Below, piece after piece: positions 2,759 to 25,695 of a stretch of 64,000 bases of DNA. A program made the position numbers and the translations under genes. The DNA lies in assembly GCA_018675335.1 (NCBI GenBank), contig JABGYH010000006.1:17464-81463 (forward strand), written 5' to 3'. Position 1 is the stretch's first letter, and every line of letters begins with the position of its first letter. The notes beneath the pieces were generated by a model, which was given only the letters and a program-made list of their open reading frames with translations, ran no database searches and was not told the DNA's origin. This DNA comes from Candidatus Woesearchaeota archaeon. GTDB taxonomy: Archaea; Nanobdellota; Nanobdellia; Woesearchaeales; UBA11576.

Positions 2759-5028
2759 TTTTTAATCAATTCACCAAGTTTTTTTCTAAAAATAAATACC
2801 AAAATAAACGAAAATAAACTAAAAAAAAACAATCCAATTCTTAATGCTCTTAATTTATATTCAAAATAAACTTTGTAAACTCCTGGAGTGTCAACTTTTA
2901 CAGACATAAAACTTGGACTAATTTCGTAAATTTCAGATTCAGTTCCATTAACATACGCGCGCCATTCAGGATGCGCACTAACTTTTAACATAATAAAACA
3001 ACTAGAATCAGTTACATTAACTAAAGTTTCATAATATCCTCGCCTAACAACTTCAGTTCCACCAATAACAGATCCACAATTTTTAGGAACTGATTTAAAT
3101 GTTTGAAAAAAATGGAGTGCATCTACTGTTGTTAATTCATGTGTTTTTAAATTTTTAACATCAATATTAAAACTATTATCAGTTATAACAACTCGTTTTC
3201 TATCCTCACTTAACAATGATTGATAATTTTTCATCAAAACAGATCGTTCAGGGGGAATAATTAAAAAGTTCAAATCAATATGTTCAGTTATACTAGTTAA
3301 TTCATTCAACAAACGAGGTTTTAAAATTAGGATATGTTCATTAGTCGAAGGAAGTACACTAAAATACCACATAAGAAAAATAGGCCTGGAATCACCTAAA
3401 GAAGAATCAATCGCAATAGAACTTTGAACTAAATCAAAATAAGAAGAAGACGTTTTATTAAAAATAACATAGTTTTTATTTTTAAAATAAAAATCAGTCA
3501 AATTAGTTCTATTAGAATTTGAAATAAAATAGCCTAAATTAAATAAATTATACAGATCAGTTTTATTTGAGAATGAAATAAATGGTTTATTCACATAAAA
3601 AATACTCAAAGAATCATGTCCTCCTATTCCACCACTAAAAAAAGACGGTTTATTAGAATAAATTGGAATGCTATTAGGAATCATAGAATATGAACTAAAA
3701 TTTTCAAAAATTACTCGAGAATTAGGCATTAAATTTAACTCATTCATGATTTGATTAAGATCCGGTTCAGACCCCACATCATGAAAAGTAACAACGTTTC
3801 CCACATAATTAGCAGATGTATCTATAACAACAGGTGCCAAAAAAAAAACACAAACTAATAATACAATCAATAAATTAATTTGTTCATACCGGTGAAGCCT
3901 AAATTTAGAAGAAATCAAATCAATCAAAAAACCAAATGCGACTCCGATAAGAATTATTGAAAAAAAATGAAGCAAACTAATAAACCTAAATAATGGAATT
4001 GCACTAACACCAGGAATAAAATTAATTAAATTTCCAAATAATGCACGACCAATTAAAAAAAAGAAAGATAAACAAAACCCTGCCAAAATAAATTTATGTC
4101 TATCTTCTTGACGAAAATGAAAAGAAATCAAAATTCCCAAAACAGCAAAAAAAGTTAAAAAAGGCAATCTCCCAAAATCTAAAAAATTACCTGAAAAAAA
4201 ATGAAAAAATGATGAAACCCCATAACCATCAATACGATCAAAAGATTTATGTGAAAATTTACCATCATTCATATAATCCCCATAAAAATATATTGGAATC
4301 AAAAGAAATGCCACAAAACAGAAAGTACAAAAAGCTAAAAAAAGAATTTTCTTTAATTTTAGTTTATTAAATTTCAAAAAAAGAGCAGGCACAGCAGTTA
4401 AAGCAGCCATAAACCCAGATAAAAAATGGGTTAAAAAAGTAAGAGATAAAAAAACAGATACTTTAAAAAAAGTAATTTCATTTTTACAATTTTTAATAAA
4501 AAAAAATCGGTAAATAAACGCAATTGTAAGTGGAAAAAAAATTAACACCATCACTTGAGAGTATATACCATATTTAAAAAAAGCTACAATCTCTAATCCA
4601 AATCCCTGATAAGAAGAAAGCATTGTTGAGACCAATGCACTAAATAATGAACTAATTTGAGAAAATTCCATCAACCTCATACTTTTATAAATAACTAAAG
4701 GGAATAACCCAAAAGATAAAAAGATCGATAACTTAAATAAAAATAACAAATCTAAATGAGTGAATACATATATTAAACCAATAAAAAAATAAGATAATGG
4801 TGCATAAAAATTAAACAAAGGAAACCCCAAATTATAATCTGGACTCCACCAATTAAGAGTATGAGTTTGAATTAAATCTACCGTATTAATAACTAAATTA
4901 AAATGACTTACTCCATCGCCCCCCGGAGGAAGCCCTCGCTGCAATAAAGGAGATAAAAAAAATAAATTAAAAAAAATAATAATTCCTAAAATAATATACA
5001 GCGATGTTTTGTGTAATTCTTTCATCAA
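2755..5028 (-). CDS. Large polytopic membrane protein with C-terminal extracytoplasmic domain; GT-C-like glycosyltransferase candidate (YfhO/ArnT/PMT-like architecture). Not AglB: no WWDYG motif
   Basis: At least 12 predicted TM helices across the first ~400 aa, then a ~350 aa soluble domain. Its start overlaps the stop of the LtaS-GDPD gene by 4 nt, indicating an operon. Assignment is by architecture only. Confidence 0.35.
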   Translation of the reverse strand: MMKELHKTSLYIILGIIIFFNLFFLSPLLQRGLPPGGDGVSHFNLVINTVDLIQTHTLNWWSPDYNLGFPLFNFYAPLSYFFIGLIYVFTHLDLLFLFKLSIFLSFGLFPLVIYKSMRLMEFSQISSLFSALVSTMLSSYQGFGLEIVAFFKYGIYSQVMVLIFFPLTIAFIYRFFFIKNCKNEITFFKVSVFLSLTFLTHFLSGFMAALTAVPALFLKFNKLKLKKILFLAFCTFCFVAFLLIPIYFYGDYMNDGKFSHKSFDRIDGYGVSSFFHFFSGNFLDFGRLPFLTFFAVLGILISFHFRQEDRHKFILAGFCLSFFFLIGRALFGNLINFIPGVSAIPLFRFISLLHFFSIILIGVAFGFLIDLISSKFRLHRYEQINLLIVLLVCVFFLAPVVIDTSANYVGNVVTFHDVGSEPDLNQIMNELNLMPNSRVIFENFSSYSMIPNSIPIYSNKPSFFSGGIGGHDSLSIFYVNKPFISFSNKTDLYNLFNLGYFISNSNRTNLTDFYFKNKNYVIFNKTSSSYFDLVQSSIAIDSSLGDSRPIFLMWYFSVLPSTNEHILILKPRLLNELTSITEHIDLNFLIIPPERSVLMKNYQSLLSEDRKRVVITDNSFNIDVKNLKTHELTTVDALHFFQTFKSVPKNCGSVIGGTEVVRRGYYETLVNVTDSSCFIMLKVSAHPEWRAYVNGTESEIYEISPSFMSVKVDTPGVYKVYFEYKLRALRIGLFFFSLFSFILVFIFRKKLGELIKK

Positions 5029-5098
5029 AAATTTAAAAATAAAAGATATTTAAATAGTTTTAGAATCATTTAAATAGGAAAACAAGTATATCCAAATT

Positions 5099-5812
5099 AT
5101 GAAAATATCCATAGTAATTCCCGCATATAATGAAGAAAAAAGAATAGGAAATTCATTAAAAAAAATAATCAAATTTTGCAATAAAAATTTGACAGATTAT
5201 GAATTAATCATAGTGAATGACTTCTCAAAAGACAATACATTAGAAATAATAAACAAAAACAAAAACAAAAAAACAAAAGTTCTAAAAAATAAAAAAAATA
5301 AAGGAAAAGGTTATACTGTGAAAAGAGGTATTTTAAATGCAAAATACCCTCTAGTCCTATTTTCAGATAGTGATCTTGCAACACCTATTGAAGAAATTTT
5401 AAAAATGCTCAAATACATCCCAAAATATGATATTATTATTGCATCCAGAAACCTAAAAAAGTCCGATGTAAGAGTCAAACAATCTTGGTATCGTCAAATA
5501 ATGGGTAAAACATTTCCAATTATTGTTAATATGCTAGCAGTTCCAGGAATTCGTGATACTCAATGTGGATTTAAATTATTCAAAACAGATCTAGCAAAAA
5601 AAATTGTATCAAAGCAAACAATTAATAGATGGGCTTTTGATGTAGAATTATTATTTATCGCAAGAAAAATGAATCTAAAAATAAAAGAAGTCCCAATTAT
5701 TTGGATCGATAAAGAAGGAAGCACAATAACCAACCCCCTCCGAGACGCAACAAAAATGCTAAAAGATGTTATAAAAATCCAATTAAATAATTTCAAAGGA
5801 AAATATGATTAA
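5099..5812 (+). CDS. GT2 family polyprenyl-phosphate sugar synthase (Dpm1/GtrB/CsbB-like)
   Basis: 'ISIVIPAYNEE...IVNDFSKDNT...FSDSDLATP...TQCGFKLF' gives GT2 DxD/DAD-type motifs. Length 237 aa. Confidence 0.7.
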   Translation: MKISIVIPAYNEEKRIGNSLKKIIKFCNKNLTDYELIIVNDFSKDNTLEIINKNKNKKTKVLKNKKNKGKGYTVKRGILNAKYPLVLFSDSDLATPIEEILKMLKYIPKYDIIIASRNLKKSDVRVKQSWYRQIMGKTFPIIVNMLAVPGIRDTQCGFKLFKTDLAKKIVSKQTINRWAFDVELLFIARKMNLKIKEVPIIWIDKEGSTITNPLRDATKMLKDVIKIQLNNFKGKYD

Positions 5813-6522
5813 AAAAATTTAAAAATAAAATAATTCCATAAATTATACAAATAAAGATAATATTCTTTAAAATTTGCTTTACTTTTTCCTTTAACGCGAT
5901 CAGTAAAAGTTATTGGTACTTCTTTAACGATTTTCCAATTTGATTTAACCAACAGCTCTAAACAAATTTTAAATCCTTTTGCATTAAATCGTTTTCCTTC
6001 TATACATTTTTTTTTAATTAAAAAAAAACCAGACATGGGATCCTTCGCTTTAGTAAATGGACGAGATAAAAATGTTGCTCCTTTTGAAACAATTCTTCGA
6101 AATAAAGGCCACCCAACAATTTTACCTCCCTTAACATACCTGCTTCCAATAACAAAATCAGGAAATCGCTTATCATATCCAACAGGAGTAATAATTGCAT
6201 TATAAAGTTGAGGAATTAATTGGGGAGGATGACTCATATCAGCATCCATAACGCCTAAAATTTCTCCTTTTGCACAATCAAATCCTGCTAATACTGCAGA
6301 ACTTAAACCAGTTTTAGCAGTTCTACTTAACAAATGAAGTTTAGAAAATTTATTTTTAAGTTTTTTAACCATTTCACTCGTTCCATCAGGAGAATTATCA
6401 TCAACAACAATAATCTCCGCAGAAATTTTATATTGACTAAATAATTCAAACAAATTTTTAATTAAAATAGAAATATTTTCTTTTTCATTATAAGTTGGAA
6501 TTATTAAACTAAGAACTACCAT
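5809..6522 (-). CDS. GT2 family dolichyl-phosphate hexose synthase (Dpm1-like), paralog of the convergent neighbour
   Basis: 'LSLIIPTYNEKENI...IVVDDNSPDGT...GVMDADMSHPP'. Exactly 237 aa. Converges on the previous GT2 with overlapping stop codons. Confidence 0.7.
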   Translation of the reverse strand: MVVLSLIIPTYNEKENISILIKNLFELFSQYKISAEIIVVDDNSPDGTSEMVKKLKNKFSKLHLLSRTAKTGLSSAVLAGFDCAKGEILGVMDADMSHPPQLIPQLYNAIITPVGYDKRFPDFVIGSRYVKGGKIVGWPLFRRIVSKGATFLSRPFTKAKDPMSGFFLIKKKCIEGKRFNAKGFKICLELLVKSNWKIVKEVPITFTDRVKGKSKANFKEYYLYLYNLWNYFIFKFF

Positions 6523-8422
6523 TGTTTACTCCTCGCATCTTTTGTTTTGTTAATAAAATAAGTTTATAAACTGATTGATCGGGTTTCATTTGTAACGCAA
6601 AATTAAATGCAAATAATGCCTCCTCATATTCACCTAAATAAAAATTAGCAATTCCTAAGTTATTCCACGACTCAAATGAAGAATTATCTAATTTAATTGC
6701 TTGATGAAAAAAATATTTAGCTGAGTTATAATCACCCATTTTCAATTTGTTTATTCCTAAAAATGATTTAGAATTAGAAAAATCTCTTTTAAGAACTAAA
6801 TATACAGGATCTTTTGATTCATTATGACTTATCAAATAATTAGCACTATAATATTCATAATCTAAATCAACATTCAAAGTAGACAAATTATTAATTTGAA
6901 AAATAATGCCCCTAATAGAATAAGTTTTATTTTCAACAGATAAATTATTAAAAGTGGAAAACAAAACATAATTAGTATCTAATTTAGCAATTAAATTATT
7001 AAATATATCATCAACACTCAAATAGTTTTCATTTGATAAAATAATATTAAATTTAGATTCAAGTTGTTTTAAATAAACCTTTGATCCAAACATATTTATA
7101 TGAATGATCTCAGTATTAACAAATTTATTATCAACATACTTTAAATACCAAAAAATGGGCAAAGTTACATCACTATCGGTAAACAAAACATTTTTTTCAG
7201 ACGTAATACTATAAATAGTATTATCAACATCTAATCCATACCAATAAGGCAAATAATTATCAGATTCATTATTAATTTGAAAATTACTATAAAATTGAAA
7301 ACATATCAAACAAAAAACAATTAAAAAAATAAAACCTTTAATTAATTTATTTAACTTATAATTTAATAAAAAATAAAAGCCATAAAGTATAATAAATAAA
7401 ACAAAAAAATAAGAGCTTAAAAAAAATATATCAATTCCTTTAATTTCAGTACCTATTTTATAAGTTATATTAAATAACAAATTAACTAAAAGAACTAATA
7501 AAAAAAAAATTCCTAATTTTATATCTTTTCTTTTAAAAAATAAATAAAAAACACCTAAAAAAATAAATAAACTTAACAAACCAAATTGAAAAAACAAATC
7601 ATTTACAAAAAAGGATATATAAGACGAAACTTGAGAATAATCTGCAGACCCCATCAACGGCCTAAATTGTTTTGCAGTTACATGATCTAAAAAATTACTA
7701 AATAATTCTGGATTACCCCAATCCATTTCAGGATTCATTGAAGATCTAATTGACAAATATAAATAGGGAGTAAGGCCAATAAGAAAAATTAAAAAACAAA
7801 TAATAATTATTTTAATATTAAACATTTTTTTATTTATTTTTAAATTAAAAATATTAAATCCTTGTTTTTTAATAAATATAAAATATAAAAATCCAGGAGC
7901 AAACAAAACATAAGTAAGATGATTTGTTAAACAAAGACCGTAGGTAAAACAAAAAAAATATAACCATTTATTATCTCCTAATTTTTCAAATTTTAACAAA
8001 AAATAAAAAGATACACTCAATAAAAAAATACCTAAAGTATGAACCTCGGCAATCACTGCTTGACTCCAAAATGTTTTAGAAAAAGAAAAAAGAAAAACTG
8101 CTAATAACGAAATTAATTTATTTTTAGATAAAATTAAAGCAGATAAAAATATGAAAATAGCAGCTAAACTTCCAAAAAATGCAGACATTAAATTAATCCT
8201 AAATCCCTGAGTTCCTAAAGGAATATAAGAAAACACATGCCCTAACATAGTATGCAAAGGATATCCTGTTGGGTGCGCTATTCCCAAAGTTATTGCAGCA
8301 GTTGAAAGTTCAACTGAATCTTCCCATTCAATAATTGGATTTAAAGTAATAAAATAAATTGAAAAGGTTAAAAAAAAAACAAATACAACCATAAAATAAG
8401 TATTTAAATATTTATTAACCAT
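6509..8422 (-). CDS. DUF2723/TMEM260-like GT-C membrane glycosyltransferase candidate with C-terminal TPR repeats
   Basis: N-terminal 'LGIAHPTGYPLHTMLGHVF' resembles the DUF2723 signature. About 11 TM helices. C-terminal 'YNSAKYFFHQAIKLDNSSFESWNNLGIANFYLGEYEEALFAFNFALQMKP' is TPR-like. Overlaps the upstream GT2 by 14 nt. Confidence 0.45.
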   Translation of the reverse strand: MVNKYLNTYFMVVFVFFLTFSIYFITLNPIIEWEDSVELSTAAITLGIAHPTGYPLHTMLGHVFSYIPLGTQGFRINLMSAFFGSLAAIFIFLSALILSKNKLISLLAVFLFSFSKTFWSQAVIAEVHTLGIFLLSVSFYFLLKFEKLGDNKWLYFFCFTYGLCLTNHLTYVLFAPGFLYFIFIKKQGFNIFNLKINKKMFNIKIIIICFLIFLIGLTPYLYLSIRSSMNPEMDWGNPELFSNFLDHVTAKQFRPLMGSADYSQVSSYISFFVNDLFFQFGLLSLFIFLGVFYLFFKRKDIKLGIFFLLVLLVNLLFNITYKIGTEIKGIDIFFLSSYFFVLFIILYGFYFLLNYKLNKLIKGFIFLIVFCLICFQFYSNFQINNESDNYLPYWYGLDVDNTIYSITSEKNVLFTDSDVTLPIFWYLKYVDNKFVNTEIIHINMFGSKVYLKQLESKFNIILSNENYLSVDDIFNNLIAKLDTNYVLFSTFNNLSVENKTYSIRGIIFQINNLSTLNVDLDYEYYSANYLISHNESKDPVYLVLKRDFSNSKSFLGINKLKMGDYNSAKYFFHQAIKLDNSSFESWNNLGIANFYLGEYEEALFAFNFALQMKPDQSVYKLILLTKQKMRGVNNGSS

Positions 8423-17883: not shown

Positions 17884-18564
17884 CTAATTTGACTTTTCTT
17901 TCTTATTTTTTTTCATTTTATATCTTCCACGAAGTTCTACTTGATCGAGTCTCTTAATAACTTCGCATCCAATATCATAATGCTCAGAATAGCTTTCAAG
18001 CAAAAACTCATATGCTTTTTCAAATATTTTATAATGTTTTGATTCTAATGCTTGTTTTATTAAATGTAAATCTACTGCTCTATCTTCTATTTTATCTGAA
18101 AAAAAACTAAGTCCGAAATCAATAAAATAAATTTTATTTTCAGAATCACCCAAAATCATATTAGAAGTTGTTAAATCACCATGCATAATTCCATTTTTAT
18201 GCATTAATGCAATATTTTTTCCAATTTCGATGCTAAACTTTTCAAAATTAGTTTCAAAAACATCTCGTAACTTAGACCCTTTTACAAAACTCATCTGAAT
18301 AACCATATTTTTTTCATCAACACGTTCCAATTTAGGTCCAAGAACTCCAGTTGATCTTAATTTGTCCATAACTTTGGCTTCTCTTTTTGTTCTAAATTTT
18401 CGAAGTTTTAAATCAAGATCGAAATGTCTAAATTTTTTTTCAAATCTATATTTAAACACATATTCTTTAGACTCATCAACATAAATTATAGCTTCAGCAC
18501 CTTGAGCTATAGGTTCTCCTAATAAAGACCCATCAAAAGGTTCATTAATTAAATTTGCACTCAT
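17884..18564 (-). CDS. Bud32/PRPK-type serine/threonine kinase (KEOPS subunit)
   Basis: 'AQGAEAIIY' Gly-loop variant, 'HGDLTTSNMIL' catalytic loop and 'IDFGLS'. 226 aa, typical Bud32 size. Confidence 0.75.
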   Translation of the reverse strand: MSANLINEPFDGSLLGEPIAQGAEAIIYVDESKEYVFKYRFEKKFRHFDLDLKLRKFRTKREAKVMDKLRSTGVLGPKLERVDEKNMVIQMSFVKGSKLRDVFETNFEKFSIEIGKNIALMHKNGIMHGDLTTSNMILGDSENKIYFIDFGLSFFSDKIEDRAVDLHLIKQALESKHYKIFEKAYEFLLESYSEHYDIGCEVIKRLDQVELRGRYKMKKNKKEKSN

Positions 18565-19342: not shown

Positions 19343-19771
19343 TTAAAAATTTCCTGTATGCCCAAATTTTCCATCTCCCCTATCAGTTTGCTCAAGAGTT
19401 TCGGTGTCTACTAGTGTTGCGCTAACAACTGGTTGTATCAGCATTTGTGCAATTCTCATTCCGATTTCAACTTTAAAATCTTCTTTACTTAAATTATACA
19501 AAATTACTCCTATTTCTCCACGATAACTTGAATCAATTACCCCACCCATTGATTTTATTGAATATTTTGCAGCCATCCCAGATCGATCCCAAATTAAACC
19601 AACATAACCTTCAGGTATTGCAAGTTTTATTCCAGTTTTTATAATTTCTTTTTGTCCTGCAAGAATAATTTTTTCTTCGGTACTTCGAAGATCAAATCCC
19701 GCATCACCCGGACGAGCATAAACTGGACTGGGATGATCTTTAGAAAGTTTATTAATTTTAACCTCAACCAT
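19343..19771 (-). CDS. dut: dUTP diphosphatase (trimeric dUTPase)
   Basis: 'DRSGMAAKYSI', 'GVIDSSYRGEIGVILYN' and 'RIAQMLIQPV' dUTPase motifs. Start is taken at 'MVEVKINK', which has an AAGAGGT RBS. Confidence 0.8.
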   Translation of the reverse strand: MVEVKINKLSKDHPSPVYARPGDAGFDLRSTEEKIILAGQKEIIKTGIKLAIPEGYVGLIWDRSGMAAKYSIKSMGGVIDSSYRGEIGVILYNLSKEDFKVEIGMRIAQMLIQPVVSATLVDTETLEQTDRGDGKFGHTGNF

Positions 19772-19804
19772 TTTTACCTCTTTTTTTAAAAAAAAACTCA
19801 ATAA

Positions 19805-20530
19805 TTAAATGCCTCGAATTAAAACTTCATCAAAAAACTCTTTTATTGAATTTGACATTGATTCTAATTCTTCAGGAGTATAAGGACAACTTTTTTTGTA
19901 TTCTTCATTTAAAACTTTTGCATCAAAATTAAATTGTTGCAACACATATCGTTTAGATCCAGATAACCATTCACCAATCTTAATAATATCTTCTTTATTT
20001 ATGAACTCTTTAACAACTGTTGTTCTAAATTCATATGGTAGATTACTTTGACGTATTATTTCAACACTTTCAATAATTGCATCTTTTCGAAGTGTTGTAT
20101 TTACTACCAATTCATATTTTTCAATTGGTGCTTTAATATCCATTGCGATAAAATCAATCAATCTTGAGTCTATCAAGTCTTTTAACATTTCAGGATTAGT
20201 TCCATTAGTATCTAATTTTACTAAAAGCCCTAAATTCTTAATTTTTCGAATAAGCGCAGGTAATTGAGGGTATAATGTTGGCTCTCCACCAGTTATACAA
20301 ACTCCATCAACATATTTTTTGTGTTTTTCCATAATTTCCAAAAAGTCTTCTTCAGTTAAATCTGCGGCATTTGAAACTAACTCAGGCAATACTAGTTCAG
20401 GATTATGACAATAATGGCACCTAAAATTGCACCCCCCCAAAAATATTGTTGAAACAAGCTTTCCAGGGTAATCGATTAATGAAGTTTTTTGAATTCCTTT
20501 TATCATTTTTTTATCACAAAATATATTCAA
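19805..20530 (-). CDS. nrdG: Anaerobic ribonucleoside-triphosphate reductase activating protein (radical SAM)
   Basis: 'GGCNFRCHYCHNPE' CxxxCxxC radical-SAM motif. NrdG-like length. Adjacent to nrdD. Confidence 0.85.
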   Translation of the reverse strand: MNIFCDKKMIKGIQKTSLIDYPGKLVSTIFLGGCNFRCHYCHNPELVLPELVSNAADLTEEDFLEIMEKHKKYVDGVCITGGEPTLYPQLPALIRKIKNLGLLVKLDTNGTNPEMLKDLIDSRLIDFIAMDIKAPIEKYELVVNTTLRKDAIIESVEIIRQSNLPYEFRTTVVKEFINKEDIIKIGEWLSGSKRYVLQQFNFDAKVLNEEYKKSCPYTPEELESMSNSIKEFFDEVLIRGI

Positions 20531-20772
20531 AGTAGATTTGTTTTTATGTATTTCGGGTCTGTGATTTATATTTCAACAACAAACCACCCAAATCAATAAT
20601 TAAAACCACACTACAAAATAATAACGCAAACAATTTATACAAACCAAGCATATCCAAATACTAAGAATATACCTAAATCAAATAACACCCATCAAAAATA
20701 AATAAAATATAAAAAAAATAGAAAGAAAATATAAAAAAAGTTAATAGAAAAAAATTTTAAATTATTTCAAAT

Positions 20773-20985
20773 TTATTGTGTCGTAATCAAATTTGCTCTT
20801 TCGAATTGTGTTGCAGGCAAACCACGATTTCCATGTTTACTACAAACACTGCAACTCTCATCAAATTCAACACGTGCTTTAAATTCTTCTTTTTTACCCA
20901 CATTCCAATTAGCAATAGGTCTATGATATCCAACTACTCTACTGTACACTTCACATCTTCTGCCACACTTAGCCATTTTATTCAC
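20773..20985 (-). CDS. Stand-alone glycyl-radical domain peptide of class III RNR, encoded separately from the NrdD catalytic subunit
   Basis: 'KCGRRCEVYSRVVGYHRPIANWNVGKKEEFKARVEF' matches the NrdD C-terminal motif CxxC...RV(C/V)GY..RP...WN.GK..E...R. Own RBS 'AGAGGTGAATAAA ATG' before the second Met (probable start at 20976). Separated from nrdD by 190 bp of non-coding sequence. Confidence 0.6.
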   Translation of the reverse strand: MNKMAKCGRRCEVYSRVVGYHRPIANWNVGKKEEFKARVEFDESCSVCSKHGNRGLPATQFERANLITTQ

Positions 20986-21176
20986 CTCTTTTTTTTCAAC
21001 TAAACTCTTTTTTTTATCTCTGTAATTTGTCTCACATGATATATTAAATATATATCAAAAATCATTTAAAAAGTTAACTGCTTTGAAATATAACATCAAA
21101 CCAATTAAAAAATAATTAAAAAATTTTTCCGTCGATGACAACTAATAATTGTAAATAGTTATTACTTTAAAGCAGT

Positions 21177-23231
21177 CTATTCTGGACCATGTTCATTAAC
21201 AAAATTAACTCCTGCACTTTCAACACTTATTGGTGCTTGTTCCACAACTTCCGAAGCTTCACTTTCTTGCATTTCATAAGGGCAAGTTTCATGTTTGCCA
21301 GGAATATATCCATGATCAGGACATACACTAAATGTAGGAGTTATCGTAAAGTATGGCAACCTAAAATTATACGCAATTCTTTTTACTAATTGTTTACAAG
21401 TTTCCGCATCACTAACTCGCTCGCCCAGGAATGCATGAAAAACAGTTCCCCCAGTATACGCGGCTTGCAAATCATCTTGCATTTCTAATGCTTCAAAAAT
21501 ATCTCGCGTATAATCTACAGGCAATTGAGTTGAATTAGTATAATATGGTGTATCTTCTCCAGCACTAAGAATATCTGGAAATCGCTTCTTATCTGCTTTT
21601 GCCAATCTATAACTGGTACCTTCTGCAGGAGTTGCTTCTAAATTGTATAAATTTCCGGTTTCTTCTTGAAATTCAGATAATTTTGACTTCATAAAATGAA
21701 TTATTTCTTTAGCCATAATTACTCCTTCTTTACTAGCAATATTTTTACCAATAAAGTTTAACAAAGATTCATTCATCCCATTAAGACCAATTGTTGCAAA
21801 GTGATTATTAAACGTGCCTAAATATCTTTTAGTGAATGGAAATAAACCTTTATCCAAACTACTTGAAACTACTTTTCTTTTAATTTCTAAAGATTCCTTT
21901 GCCAGTTCCATAAGTCGCGCAAGTCTTTCAAAATAATCTTCTTTTGAACTTGCAAGATAACCTACTCGAGCAAGATTCATAGTAACAACGCCAATACTCC
22001 CAGTCATTTCTGCAGCACCAAAAAGTCCACCACCTTTATTTCTCAAATCTCTCAGATCCATTTGTAATCTACAACACATACTGCGCACATCACCAGGATT
22101 TAATTCAGAATTAATAAAGTTTTGAAAATAAGGAATCCCATACTTTGCAGTCATTTCAAAAAGAAGAGTTGCATTTTCACTATCCCAATCAAAATCTTCA
22201 GTTATGTTATATGTTGGAATTGGAAATGTAAATATTCTCCCACTAGCATCCCCTTCAATCATACACTCCATAAATGCTTTGTTAATCAAATCCATTTCTT
22301 TTTGGCAATCACCAAAAGTAAAATCTGCTTCTTTTCCACCAATAATTGCAGGATTATTTTTTAAGTCAGGAGGACAAACCCAATCAAGTGTTAAATTAAT
22401 AAATGGAGTTTGTGTTCCCCATCTGCTAGGTGTTGCAATATTAAATAAGAATCTCTGCATTTGTTGTTTAACTTGTTTATAAGTTAAGTTATCAACTTTA
22501 ATAAATGGTGCAAGATATGTATCAAACGAAGAAAATGCTTGTGCACCCGCCCACTCATTTTGTAACGTACCTAAGAAATTTACCATCTGACCAATAATTG
22601 TATCAAAATGTTTTGGAGGAACTGTTTGCAATTTTCCCGCAACACCACCAAATCCTTCTGCAATTAATTGTCTTAAACTCCAACCAGCACAATATCCACT
22701 AAACATGGATAAGTCATGAATATGAAAATCACCCTCAATATGTGAGTCTCGAATTTCTTTTGGATAAATATGATTCAACCAATAATTTGCAGTTATTTTT
22801 CCTGAAATATTAAGAATAAGGCCGCCAATCGAATATCCAACATTAGCATTTTCATTTACTCTCCAATCACTTCGACTCAAATATTCATTCATTGTTTCTT
22901 CAACATTAATCAAAACTTCACTATCTTCACGAGATAATCTTCGTTTTTCTCTGTACAAAATAAATGACTTTGAAACATCCGCATGACCTTCTTCAATTAG
23001 AACTTTTTCAATTAAATCTTGAATATTTTCAACTGTCGGCAGGGACCCACCTTTAAAAAAAATATTAAGAATCGCAGTAACTCTTTTTGTTAAAGCTTTT
23101 GCTAAATCATAATTATCTAGATTATTAGCCTTCATAGATTTAAAAATAGCACCAGTTATCTTTTCCTCATCAAATAGAACTAATTCACCATCTCTTTTTC
23201 TTACTCGTCGAATTTCTTTTAGATAATCCAT
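21177..23231 (-). CDS. nrdD: Anaerobic ribonucleoside-triphosphate reductase catalytic subunit (class III), C-terminally truncated relative to canonical NrdD: lacks the glycyl-radical motif
   Basis: N-terminal ATP-cone ('VRKRDGELVLFDEEKITGAIFKSM'). Long NrdD core. C-terminus has half a Zn-ribbon 'CPDHGY...CPY' then an acidic tail, with no RVxGY motif. Confidence 0.9.
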   Translation of the reverse strand: MDYLKEIRRVRKRDGELVLFDEEKITGAIFKSMKANNLDNYDLAKALTKRVTAILNIFFKGGSLPTVENIQDLIEKVLIEEGHADVSKSFILYREKRRLSREDSEVLINVEETMNEYLSRSDWRVNENANVGYSIGGLILNISGKITANYWLNHIYPKEIRDSHIEGDFHIHDLSMFSGYCAGWSLRQLIAEGFGGVAGKLQTVPPKHFDTIIGQMVNFLGTLQNEWAGAQAFSSFDTYLAPFIKVDNLTYKQVKQQMQRFLFNIATPSRWGTQTPFINLTLDWVCPPDLKNNPAIIGGKEADFTFGDCQKEMDLINKAFMECMIEGDASGRIFTFPIPTYNITEDFDWDSENATLLFEMTAKYGIPYFQNFINSELNPGDVRSMCCRLQMDLRDLRNKGGGLFGAAEMTGSIGVVTMNLARVGYLASSKEDYFERLARLMELAKESLEIKRKVVSSSLDKGLFPFTKRYLGTFNNHFATIGLNGMNESLLNFIGKNIASKEGVIMAKEIIHFMKSKLSEFQEETGNLYNLEATPAEGTSYRLAKADKKRFPDILSAGEDTPYYTNSTQLPVDYTRDIFEALEMQDDLQAAYTGGTVFHAFLGERVSDAETCKQLVKRIAYNFRLPYFTITPTFSVCPDHGYIPGKHETCPYEMQESEASEVVEQAPISVESAGVNFVNEHGPE

Positions 23232-23320: not shown

Positions 23321-23761
23321 TCAAGAGAGTTTATTCAATTCCTTCTCAAAATCATCAATATTTGCAAACTCAAGATAAATTGATGCAAATCGCATATATC
23401 CAACTTTATCAATTTTCTTTAGTCGCTTTAAAACTGCTCGCCCGATGATTTTTGAAGCAATTTCATTCGCATCTTTTTTACGTATCTCAGATTCAATCTC
23501 CAAAGCAGCCTTTTCCAAAACTTCTGTTGAAACAGATCTTTTTTCACAAGCTGTTTGAAATCCTTTGAGTACTTTGTTGCGATCAAACTCTTCGCGAGTT
23601 CCGTCACGTTTTATTACCATTAATGTTGCAAGTTCTGCCCGTTCATAACTCGTAAATCGTCTTTCACATTTAAGACACTCCCGTCTTCTTCGAGTGTAGT
23701 CTTCATTATCTCTTTTATCAACAACTTTTGTATCTGATTGATTACAATACGGACATAACAT
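23321..23761 (-). CDS. nrdR: Transcriptional repressor NrdR (Zn-ribbon plus ATP-cone)
   Basis: 'MLCPYCNQSDTKVVDKRDNEDYTRRRRECLKCERRFTSYE' is the canonical NrdR N-terminal Zn-ribbon. An ATP-cone follows. Confidence 0.85.
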   Translation of the reverse strand: MLCPYCNQSDTKVVDKRDNEDYTRRRRECLKCERRFTSYERAELATLMVIKRDGTREEFDRNKVLKGFQTACEKRSVSTEVLEKAALEIESEIRKKDANEIASKIIGRAVLKRLKKIDKVGYMRFASIYLEFANIDDFEKELNKLS

Positions 23762-23873: not shown

Positions 23874-23921
23874 ACACAACATCTTGTGATGCCATTTTGA
23901 AGTAAACACAACATCTTGTGC
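23874..23921 (-). promoter_or_regulatory. Tandem NrdR-box-like palindromes (two 16-mers, 32 bp apart) upstream of nrdR
   Basis: 'ACACAACATCTTGTGA' at 23874-23889 and 'ACACAACATCTTGTGC' at 23906-23921. CACAA/TTGTG arms fit the ACAC...GTGT NrdR-box arms. Spacing is 32 bp, about 3 helical turns. Confidence 0.5.
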
Positions 23922-24295: not shown

Positions 24296-24601
24296 TTATT
24301 TTAAATTTTTAGAAGTATTCAACTTATCTTTTTTTTGAATTTGTTGAATTTTATAAACTAAATCATTAAGCTCTGCAACTAATTTATCAGAATCAACCCC
24401 ATGCATTTCAGCTCCTTGTTCAAGAGTTTCAAATGCAGCACCCGCACAACCAACACAATGAAGACCATGTTCAAAAAAAACATTAATAGTTTCAGGAAAT
24501 TTGGAAATAATTTCACCAATAGTCATAGTTTTAGTTATTGCAGAATCAGATTTATTAGAATTTGTCAACTTATCTTGTTTAGATGTGTTATCATCACTCA
24601 T
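24296..24601 (-). CDS. DUF1858-type redox disulfide protein (hybrid-cluster-protein-associated domain)
   Basis: 'MTIGEIISKFPETINVFFEHGLHCVGCAGAAFETLEQGAEMHGVD' matches the DUF1858 CxGC pattern. Confidence 0.5.
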   Translation of the reverse strand: MSDDNTSKQDKLTNSNKSDSAITKTMTIGEIISKFPETINVFFEHGLHCVGCAGAAFETLEQGAEMHGVDSDKLVAELNDLVYKIQQIQKKDKLNTSKNLK

Positions 24602-24789
24602 TTTTCTTCTATTTTAATACATTGAGCACTACATTGTGCTTCACAAGCTCGACAACCAATACACTCTTTTGGTTTAACAACTTTGCTTTTATTATTTTCC
24701 ATAACAAATACGTCCATCGGACAAACATCTATACAAGTTTTACATCCAACGCATTTGGATTCATCTACAATAGGAATTGGTTGAGTCAT
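24598..24789 (-). CDS. 2x[4Fe-4S] ferredoxin
   Basis: 'CVGCKTCIDVCP' and 'CIGCRACEAQC' cluster motifs. 63 aa. Stop overlaps the downstream DUF1858 start by 4 nt. Confidence 0.75.
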   Translation of the reverse strand: MTQPIPIVDESKCVGCKTCIDVCPMDVFVMENNKSKVVKPKECIGCRACEAQCSAQCIKIEEK

Positions 24790-24834: not shown

Positions 24835-25695
24835 CTATTCCTCTTTTTTTTCAGGTTCAGCTTCTACGGAAACATCAGTTGTTGTTTCTGCACTAACTTC
24901 TTTAACTTCAGGAACTGCTTTAGCTTCAGTTGTTTCTTTAGCTTCAGGACTTGCTTTAGCTTCAGTTGCTTCTTTAGCTTCAGGAACTGCCTTAGGTTCT
25001 GAAACTACTTTAGTTTCAGGAGCAACTGCAGGCCTAACTGGTTTTGGCTTTGCAGGTTTTTTAGAGATAATTTTTGTTAATTTTTCTGCAAGATCTTTAG
25101 CTTTTTTAGGATCGTCTTTTAATCTAGCCATAACTCTAATTTCAGTCATTCGAATAGGATGTGTTTTTTTAAGCGTATTTCTTAATGCTTTTTGAAACTT
25201 AGTACTAACTAAATCCATAACTAATGTTCTATAGTCGAGTGTTCGTACTAAAGCAAGCACGCTTGCAACAGCCATTTTTCTTAATGCTGTTTTAACTTGA
25301 GAAGTTGTTTTTGAATTTGTAATCAGTAATGGTTTAATTCTAATAAGAACGTCATCTTTTGTTAAACAAATAAATGAAATTTCTAATTTATCTTTTTGCC
25401 TTCTTACTTTTCGTTTAATCGCAGCAGAAGTTACTTCAAACTTTTTTACTTGAGTATATGCAGTTTCACCTTTAACTTGATCAACTTCGAATACAACATT
25501 AGTATTCTGTTTTTGCATATTACCCGTTAATGTCATCAAACTGGTTTTTAAAGTTTTACCAATAATTAAACTAGGATCATTAGTTGGCGTTTCCCCAAGT
25601 AAGTACTCGTTGAACTCCTTAGAAGCTAATACTTTAAACCACTTCTTCTTTTTCCATTTATCGACTGTTTTTGTAACCTTTTTGCCTTTTGCCAT
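24835..25695 (-). CDS. rps3ae: Ribosomal protein S3Ae (eS1) with ~80 aa Lys/Ala/Glu/Pro-rich C-terminal extension
   Basis: 'MAKGKKVTKTVDKWKKKKWFKVLASKEFN' is the S3Ae N-terminus. Tail has 'PEAKEATEAKASPEAKETTEAKAVPEVKE' repeats. Confidence 0.8.
   Translation of the reverse strand: MAKGKKVTKTVDKWKKKKWFKVLASKEFNEYLLGETPTNDPSLIIGKTLKTSLMTLTGNMQKQNTNVVFEVDQVKGETAYTQVKKFEVTSAAIKRKVRRQKDKLEISFICLTKDDVLIRIKPLLITNSKTTSQVKTALRKMAVASVLALVRTLDYRTLVMDLVSTKFQKALRNTLKKTHPIRMTEIRVMARLKDDPKKAKDLAEKLTKIISKKPAKPKPVRPAVAPETKVVSEPKAVPEAKEATEAKASPEAKETTEAKAVPEVKEVSAETTTDVSVEAEPEKKEE

Follow-up and report, generated by a model that had tools for sequence, protein, structure and literature searches.

A separately encoded glycyl-radical domain at the class III ribonucleotide reductase locus of a woesearchaeote and its relatives

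In a stretch of 64,000 nucleotides (nt) from a Candidatus Woesearchaeota archaeon (assembly GCA_018675335.1, contig JABGYH010000006.1, positions 17,464-81,463 of the forward strand), the catalytic subunit of a class III ribonucleotide reductase (RNR) is encoded by two adjacent, independently translated open reading frames (ORFs), an arrangement that is conserved across species. We refer to the whole stretch as the window, and all coordinates are positions within it. The first of the two genes, nrdD, specifies 684 amino acids (aa) and the second a protein of 67 aa, on which alone the glycine loop is found. It is highly probable that the locus specifies a functional two-polypeptide class III RNR, in which the radical module acts in trans and the small chain is an obligate subunit. 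That the small protein would be obligate rather than a spare follows from the large chain, which has no radical domain of its own.

The nrd cluster lies entirely on the minus strand, in the order nrdR, 684-aa nrdD, small ORF, nrdG and dut. The parts of the split enzyme and its activase are:

21177-23231, minus strand: nrdD large subunit, 684 aa, with an ATP-cone, an alpha/beta-barrel core and three of four zinc ligands, without a glycyl-radical loop (Pfam, NCBIfam, AlphaFold2 (AF2))
22938-23207, minus strand: ATP-cone, large-subunit residues 9-98 (Pfam)
21279-21323, minus strand: incomplete zinc ribbon, C637-x2-H640-x9-C650-P651; the fourth ligand of fused relatives (CPxC) is not on the large chain
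21180-21275, minus strand: acidic C-terminal tail of 32 aa, residues 653-684, unconserved and predicted to be disordered (predicted local distance difference test (pLDDT) of AF2, relatives)
20977-21176, minus strand: non-coding spacer (stops in all frames, 20% G+C, no Rfam family)
20773-20976, minus strand: nrdD small subunit, 67 aa plus stop (NRDD profile positions 526-562, conservation among homologues, ratio of non-synonymous to synonymous substitution rates (dN/dS))
19805-20530, minus strand: nrdG, radical-SAM activase (TIGR02495 (NrdG2), 220 bits against a cut-off of 131; Pfam)

An earlier reading of this DNA from its letters alone (the sequence-only reading) had described an NrdD with ATP-cone and catalytic core that ends in half a zinc ribbon and an acidic tail and lacks the RVxGY glycyl-radical motif. 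Profile searches bear this out. Residues 127-652 match positions 1-526 of the 562 in the Pfam NRDD profile (PF13597; 593 bits, cut-off 26.2), and the chain scores 1092 bits against NCBIfam NF006126 (cut-off 548; model positions 3-659 of 684, an alignment that extends a few positions into the unconserved tail) and 492 bits against TIGR02487 (cut-off 326). It closes with ...SVC637PDH640GYIPGKHETC650PY and the acidic tail, and the RVxGY motif is not present anywhere in the 684 residues. Across 50 mostly split large subunits, C637, H640, C650 and P651 are invariant, as is a C386-C387 pair within RSMCCRLQ; the tails that follow the ribbon in relatives run from ~10 to 125 aa and differ in sequence.

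The rest of the profile is found on the small ORF, which matches NRDD positions 526-562 and aligns to NF006126 positions 646-683, such that nothing of the NRDD profile is lost or duplicated between the two chains. PF13597 is its sole Pfam match and NCBIfam returns only NrdD models; there is no match to PF01228 (Gly_radical), the C-terminal domain of pyruvate formate-lyase (PFL). Its hits fall on the C-terminal ends of full-length NrdD models, under their cut-offs, and on phrog_4132 (function unknown), and neither NCBIfam nor PHROGs contains a dedicated family model for it. The chain carries Cys4 (the putative fourth zinc ligand), Cys8, Gly16 in RVVGY (codon 20929-20931), an RPxxxWNxGKxxEF motif and a C-terminal tail; C4, C8, G16 and RP..WN.GK..EF are invariant in 17 small-chain homologues. 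No second glycyl-radical motif was found within the window.

The small ORF spans 20773-20985 and reads as 70 aa from a GTG, or as 67 aa from the ATG at 20976, beginning MAKCGRRCEVYSRVVGY (MAKCGRRCEVYSRVVGYHRPIANWNVGKKEEF). The ATG is almost certainly the true start, since it follows the Shine-Dalgarno sequence AGAGGTGA (20982-20989) at a distance of 5 nt, and the GTG is itself part of that sequence; the NCBI annotation also has the 67-aa form. The sequence-only reading had placed the radical motif on a separate ORF of 67-70 aa, 190 bp downstream, with a ribosome-binding site of its own and the activase gene nrdG following. Each of these points stood up, with 67 aa the likelier length. A cognate radical-SAM activase gene of the NrdG2 type thus accompanies nrdD, and by its sequence features the enzyme would be classed as a class III RNR that deviates in having its radical loop off the catalytic chain.

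The break falls within the zinc ribbon, whose predicted ligands are divided between the chains: C637, H640 and C650 on the large one and C4 on the small one, all four invariant. Fused relatives read CPxHGY...CPxCG..CEVYSRVVGY, and the divided ligands align to CPxHGY...CPxC; aligned to Prevotella copri NrdD (...CLDCGY...CPKCG...LQRITGY), the break lies between the third and fourth ligands. Solved NrdD C-terminal domains comprise a structural zinc site, a buried glycine loop and a surface tail. The zinc site of Thermotoga maritima NrdD is Cys/His/Cys/Cys, its zinc domain has been proposed to contact NrdG, and the radical domain of P. copri NrdD (residues 676-739) moves as a rigid body. When the large chain of the window is modelled alone (AF2, mean pLDDT 82.7), the barrel is well folded, the half-ribbon reaches 62-67 and residues 655-682 fall below 50, and in this model the half-ribbon looks incomplete without a partner chain. 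One natural fusion, P0140, runs from CPV through a ~30-aa linker into VCGKTCEVFSRVVGY. Its AF2 model has a mean pLDDT of 84, with 87-91 over the zinc ribbon, 84-90 over the glycine domain and 52-56 over the linker, and it matches the NrdDs of P. copri (the best match, E = 6e-33), Streptococcus thermophilus, T. maritima and T4; matches to solved NrdDs by Foldseek and by sequence were 8p23, 4coi, 9d3x and 1h7a. Since P0140 is predicted to fold as a normal NrdD around a low-confidence linker, the break is, as far as the model shows, at a surface site that tolerates insertion.

The split is present in the organism and not only in the assembly. The stretch of tail, spacer and small ORF is 100% identical over 700 nt in the Logan assembly of SRR3724309, the junction is identical over the available 381 nt in the ENA assembly of another sample, and the small protein is present on eight contigs in total. 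Compared with the closest relative, a Woesearchaeota metagenome-assembled genome (MAG; L001), the small ORF has a dN/dS of 0.136 and the large core one of 0.109, values that indicate purifying selection on both. In an AT-rich MAG with homopolymer runs near the junction, one might suspect a pseudogene or an error of assembly or sequencing. Such an origin is hardly credible given the agreement of independent assemblies, which show no assembly indel of the kind that the sequence-only reading wished to see excluded, and given selection on both ORFs. The arrangement is moreover conserved in relatives that are 60-83% identical, it recurs in cultured bacteria, and a 200-nt insertion is unlike an indel-type error.

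Measured to the GTG the spacer is 190 nt long, and measured to the ATG 200 nt. Positions 20986-21176 (191 nt) contain 6, 8 and 2 stops in the three frames at 20% G+C, in agreement with the initial description of a gap that is non-coding in all frames, and no intron, ribozyme or other RNA family of Rfam matched at E ≤ 10 across 20400-21700. Two T6 runs lie just past the large ORF (21118-21123 and 21107-21112), and the TATA-like region that had been noticed upstream of the small ORF corresponds to an AT-rich palindrome at 21037-21057, ~60-80 nt before the ATG. From their sequence and position, the T6 runs and the palindrome may be an archaeal terminator and promoter.

It might be supposed that the two ORFs are joined into one chain after all, through read-through, frameshifting, an RNA intron or protein trans-splicing. 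In L001 and L011 the two ORFs share a frame and are separated by one TAA and 21 nt, and introns and inteins have been described in nrdD genes of phages. We nonetheless judge such joining very improbable: besides the stops in the window's gap and the lack of an Rfam intron there, the distance from large stop to small start in 52 split loci ranges from -26 to +252 nt and takes in all three relative frames, and the small ORF starts with ATG in 51 of the 52 (TTG in the other) and has a Shine-Dalgarno-like motif upstream in most. Such varied spacings, frames and independent start codons argue for two genes and not for recoding. In L003, for instance, the small gene starts at a TTG within the last 26 nt of the large gene, in a different frame, and the codons for the tail of the large protein include its Shine-Dalgarno sequence; in L001, where the gene order is equivalent to that of the window and a ~125-aa low-complexity tail follows CPY, the small gene comes 21 nt after the large gene and is preceded by GAGGTGA, a Shine-Dalgarno sequence as in the window. 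Read-through and frameshifting were accordingly rejected on the stops in the gap and the spacings and frames of relatives. A split intein was rejected also, since the tails are unconserved and merely 2-5 residues precede the small protein's first Cys, leaving no room for intein halves.

The arrangement extends well beyond this archaeon. We surveyed the 120 clusters (90% identity) nearest to the large protein together with the 80 best loci from GTDB species representatives, accepting the variants TRVMGY, ARIVGY and RVVGF in calls of the glycine loop. Of these 200 large subunits, 122 lack the loop, 71 among the clusters and 51 among the loci, and 78 have it. In 49 of the 51 genome loci with a split gene, the large gene is followed directly by an ORF that carries the glycine motif; one of the other two ends with its contig 48 nt past the stop, and the second has no resolved small ORF. 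Split genes occur in DPANN archaea, in Treponema and other spirochaetes, in Gammaproteobacteria (Kangiella, Permianibacter, Lysobacterales), in Betaproteobacteria (Sutterella, Rugamonas, Duganella, Undibacterium, Rhodocyclaceae), in gut Alphaproteobacteria, and in Chthoniobacter, Victivallales, Obscuribacterales, an Atopobiaceae and a Parcubacterium; cultured carriers include Kangiella aquimarina DSM 16071.

Stand-alone homologues of the small protein, 42-200 aa overall, are correspondingly numerous. A window-type query returned 648 clusters at 90% identity (42-123 aa among the best 120) and a proteobacterial-type query 3678 (53-86 aa among the best 120). An exhaustive HMMER scan of 1.84 billion representatives gave 4978 matches at E ≤ 1e-3, of which the best 150 were all 48-200 aa and mostly aligned from the first residue. 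RefSeq contains such proteins from Kangiella, Marinobacter, Duganella, Rugamonas and Alcaligenes faecalis, labelled 'anaerobic ribonucleoside-triphosphate reductase', 'oxidoreductase' or 'hypothetical protein'. The sequence-only reading had proposed a search for the same architecture elsewhere and had named, as the outcome that would overturn it, small-ORF homologues that are always fused, with this locus an isolated pseudogene. With free-standing homologues in the thousands, that outcome did not arise.

Junctions in the relatives are of at least five types. The first, that of the window, is found in DPANN archaea and in similar form in Victivallales: its large chain closes with CP[YF/x] and a tail that varies, and its small chain opens with M-x-(K/R)-C-G-x2-C-E-V-Y-S-R, which places the cut inside the second knuckle of the zinc ribbon. 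In the second, proteobacterial type, the large chain ends CPKCDxELLxKKQ..., keeping all four ligands, and the small chain reads M...ERQxCEVWTRVMGYHRP; in L063, L076 and L077, which are fused, a linker occupies the equivalent site. The third occurs in spirochaetes and Margulisbacteria (L018-L026, L035, L171), where the large chain ends in a heptad-like charged helix and a small chain of 170-217 aa runs from a similar charged helix through the glycine loop to a thioredoxin-like CPxCP domain. The matching sequences suggest that the two helices form a coiled-coil tether and that the thioredoxin-like domain is a built-in reductant. One Treponema MAG (L024) has tandem small genes after a single large gene, at 3053-3349 and 3469-4059, the 98-aa product without and the 196-aa product with the thioredoxin-like domain. 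An archaeal fourth type (CPKCDAEIEA...) has a 61-aa partner, and a fifth (CPIDG...) an 81-aa partner followed by a separate redoxin gene. The remaining junction types that we checked are also ordered large gene, small gene, nrdG.

In a neighbour-joining tree of 192 large subunits, which is rough, split and fused forms are interleaved with ~20 changes by parsimony, and several large clades are mostly split. Even by themselves, the different breakpoints speak for repeated fission, re-fusion or both, to judge from the sequences. Fused proteins with a long insertion exactly at the window's break (P0140, P0154, P0192 and P0138) look like re-fusions or precursors of the split form. Inteins or LAGLIDADG domains lie inside several close NrdD homologues (P0127, P0141, P0171, P0201, P0211, P0216 and P0235), and in the split operon of L172 a free-standing LAGLIDADG gene (5830-6663) directly follows nrdG; mobile elements may possibly have been involved in nrdD fissions. 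A further variant among homologues is an N-terminal NrdR-type zinc ribbon (PF22811) ahead of the ATP-cone and NrdD core (P0137, P0138, P0139, P0158, P0163, P0166, P0174 and P0225).

These patterns bear on whether the split serves a purpose. Inteins and homing endonucleases insert into RNR genes with particular frequency, and the split, although real, could be a neutral gene fission: a homing endonuclease, intein or other mobile element would have inserted at a permissive surface site and decayed, leaving a small chain that is permanently bound and takes no part in exchange or repair. We regard this as possible but rather doubtful. Inteins in close homologues (P0127, P0141, P0171, P0211) and the LAGLIDADG gene beside the L172 operon fit it, as do the splitting of phage Aeh1 nrdA by mobE and of further phage RNR genes, the unconserved and disordered tails of the large chains, and the frequent interconversion of split and fused forms, which is expected if the two are roughly equivalent. 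Indeed, neutral fission explains the cellular data equally well as repair does. It is less easily reconciled with the tandem small genes in one genome, with clades in which the split form prevails, and with the window's own gap, in which no endonuclease remnant is detectable. Phages, too, are a difficulty for it.

Scanning IMG/VR with the small-protein alignment gave 478 relatives, and we classified the best 80 of these 478 loci (L091-L170). In 55 of the 80 the gene is a stand-alone ORF, mostly of 42-110 aa, within 6 kb of which neither the NrdD core nor NrdG has a match, and which often lies in a replication or recombination module; another 23 loci are normal nrdD genes of full length and 2 are unclassified. 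Stand-alone small genes also sit in phage-like surroundings in L004-L010, with Bro-N, RusA, DUF669, AAA_24, HNH and VRR-NUC as neighbours. In L119 the small gene (5983-6165) lies between a Sak4-like annealing protein and a single-stranded DNA-binding protein (SSB), in a module ordered exonuclease VIII, Sak4, small gene, SSB, RusA, helicase and primase, and on a Victivallaceae MAG contig (L007) the surroundings are similar (AAA_24, DUF669, RusA, helicase). An unusual SRVCGY variant is common to 15 phage proteins and the cellular small subunits of Victivallales, in which nrdD is split; a few phage proteins (L159, L163, L166) have a full CxxC...CxxC ribbon. On a 266-kb scaffold (L004/L005), a 44-aa small glycyl-radical gene (5001-5135) comes after a gene for a 1190-aa protein with no recorded Pfam match and a strong hairpin terminator, with YAcAr, DUF4326 and patatin domains nearby; the scaffold may be from a very large phage or mobile element.

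On the simplest reading of these sequences, the phages provide the radical module only and would use the large chain and activase of the host. The best indirect evidence that the module acts, and may be exchanged, in trans is the large number of phages in which the small gene occurs by itself. Such loci, found in many phage lineages, are hard to explain by neutral fission unless the module loads onto an existing large chain.

The stand-alone genes invite one more interpretation of the window: its small protein could be a spare, in the manner of GrcA, for another full-length NrdD in the genome, the truncated large ORF being inactive or repurposed. Small genes away from any nrdD in phage-like contexts lend this some colour. 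We consider it quite improbable, however, since the large ORF retains its core residues and is as strongly constrained as in relatives, the arrangement of the operon (nrdR, large gene, small gene, nrdG) is conserved, the small gene directly follows a large gene devoid of a radical domain in nearly all split loci, and the window holds no second Gly motif.

Several observations weigh against the interpretation that we favour, a two-chain enzyme with an exchangeable radical module. Several of the other breakpoint types keep all four zinc ligands on the large chain, and a composite zinc site is therefore not a general requirement for association of the chains. Most viral contigs are incomplete, and the large subunit could be encoded elsewhere in those genomes. 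Recurrent fission could be neutral, for example after insertion of a mobile element, and the search for a second nrdD covered the 64-kb window alone.

In the two-chain enzyme as we envisage it, the large chain would contribute the ATP-cone, the catalytic barrel and three zinc ligands, and the small chain the fourth ligand, the radical-glycine loop and a C-terminal tail lying on the barrel surface. The chains would join through the composite zinc site and by insertion of the glycine loop into the barrel beside C386-C387. NrdG would abstract a hydrogen from Gly16 of the small chain, whether free or bound, and reduction would then proceed as in single-chain NrdD. Oxygen cleaves glycyl-radical proteins at the radical glycine, so that damage would be confined to the 67-residue chain; it would cost 67 residues instead of ~750, and one could speculate that the small chain is replaced from a pool, that expression of the two chains can be uncoupled, and that small-gene-only phages exploit exchangeability to re-arm the host's large subunit. 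Exchange and repair as the selective rationale of the split we put forward tentatively, at a little less than an even chance. Judged more broadly, the chances appear evenly balanced that NrdD-type stand-alone glycyl-radical proteins are a large, undescribed class of exchangeable radical subunits: obligate in two-chain class III RNRs (sometimes completing the zinc site in trans, sometimes fused to a thioredoxin-like domain) and, in many phages, encoded by a lone 45-110-aa gene, a minimal auxiliary metabolic gene that re-arms the host's large subunit.

The remaining features of the locus concern control, reducing power and nucleotide metabolism:

23321-23761, minus strand: nrdR, 146 aa, repressor with zinc ribbon and ATP-cone (PF22811, PF03477)
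23874-23888 and 23906-23920, minus strand: two exact 15-nt NrdR-box-like palindromes, CACAAGATGTTGTGT, 32 nt apart, upstream of nrdR
24296-24601, minus strand: DUF1858 CxxC redox-disulfide protein, just upstream of nrdR (Pfam)
24598-24789, minus strand: 2x[4Fe-4S] ferredoxin, 63 aa, adjoining the DUF1858 gene (Pfam)
19343-19801, minus strand: dut (dUTPase), the last gene of the cluster (Pfam; equivalent order in L001)

The gene for NrdR occupies the equivalent place in L001, L003, L171 and L172. The palindromes lie ~110-160 nt upstream of nrdR and are the sole exact copies within the window; by comparison with the published NrdR-box consensus, the pair may be an NrdR operator. Boxes in the window were found only upstream of nrdR, and none before the small ORF. 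This archaeal genome thus appears, from its sequence, to carry a bacterial-type NrdR regulon.

As to the reductant, C386-C387 fits the 'double-cysteine' class of finger loop described for T. maritima-like NrdDs, with the reservation that the phmmer alignment to P. copri is gappy in the RSMCCRLQ stretch. Taken with the redoxin genes and domains of relatives, this loop suggests a thiol or redoxin reductant and not formate. The DUF1858 CxxC protein and ferredoxin next to nrdR, a pair that also adjoins the operon in L001 (1336-1816), point the same way as a lead only. Methanosarcina NrdD is served by a ferredoxin/redoxin system, and by analogy the pair could possibly be the electron donors of this RNR. 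Archaeal markers flank the cluster, ribosomal protein S3Ae at 24835-25695 and an ORF at 17884-18564 that resembles a Bud32/RIO-type kinase and whose counterpart in L174 has Pkinase and RIO1 Pfam matches. The window as a whole has 29% G+C, and neither a tRNA gene nor, at gathering thresholds, an Rfam family was found in it.

Textbooks present glycyl-radical enzymes as single-chain carriers of the radical, and PFL with GrcA is the one case known of a radical module acting in trans. The window's locus and its thousands of counterparts show that class III RNRs routinely have the radical domain on a separate protein of 5-20 kDa. If the stand-alone proteins are exchangeable, they would represent the first system of spare parts or exchange among glycyl-radical enzymes beyond the formate lyases. 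Split RNRs would offer a natural system for studying access of the activase to the glycine, docking and leaving of the radical domain, dATP inhibition through domain mobility and repair by subunit exchange. Surveys that demand one NrdD chain would miscall split enzymes as truncated and their small ORFs as fragments or hypothetical proteins, and the phage minigenes would rank among the smallest auxiliary metabolic genes known and may encode the first proteins resembling spare parts for an RNR.

A review of June 2026 records spare-part proteins for formate lyases only and leaves it undecided whether other glycyl-radical enzymes have them. In the literature, which we covered incompletely and whose silence is absence of evidence only, no account came to light of a class III RNR whose radical domain has its own gene, or of NrdD-type stand-alone radical proteins. 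The claim of the sequence-only reading that a trans-acting radical module for an RNR would be new therefore holds in so far as the arrangement is apparently undescribed in print; it is not a one-off, and its sequences have long been in public databases.

Among known systems, the single-chain NrdD/NrdG enzymes of T4, Escherichia coli, T. maritima, P. copri and S. thermophilus share with the window's locus the family core, the ATP-cone, the RVxGY loop, an NrdG2-type activase and control by NrdR, and the Cys/His/Cys/Cys pattern of the ribbon is that of T. maritima. They differ in that here the ribbon is cut between its third and fourth ligands, with the glycine loop and tail on the separate 67-aa product. 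The parallel with GrcA/YfiD that had been drawn at the outset stands for the small radical module acting in trans. Like the PFL spare parts GrcA/YfiD of E. coli and Y06I (vs.6) of T4, the small protein is a stand-alone glycyl-radical-loop protein with phage-encoded versions, presumably activated by the cognate activase and docking in trans into a large barrel. The parallel fails in two respects: the small protein is homologous to the C-terminus of NrdD (PF13597) and not to PFL (PF01228), and PFL keeps its own radical domain, whereas the large NrdD chain here has none.

Split RNRs have been described for class II (NrdJa/NrdJb) and for phage class I, and the C-terminal piece of NrdJa/NrdJb carries a Zn-finger-type domain. 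In NrdJa/NrdJb of Pseudomonas aeruginosa and Thermus phage YS40, and in NrdA of Aeromonas phage Aeh1 ('genes-in-pieces'), as at our locus, the catalytic subunit is encoded as two adjacent, separately translated pieces that would have to associate. Those enzymes differ in RNR class and break point, and in them the radical cofactor is not parted from the barrel; the window's proteins are NrdD and not NrdJ. In benzylsuccinate synthase (alpha/beta/gamma) and in 4-hydroxyphenylacetate decarboxylase with its small subunit, small accessory chains with Cys-rich metal sites bind a large glycyl-radical subunit. In these enzymes the large subunit retains the radical glycine, which at our locus belongs to the small chain.

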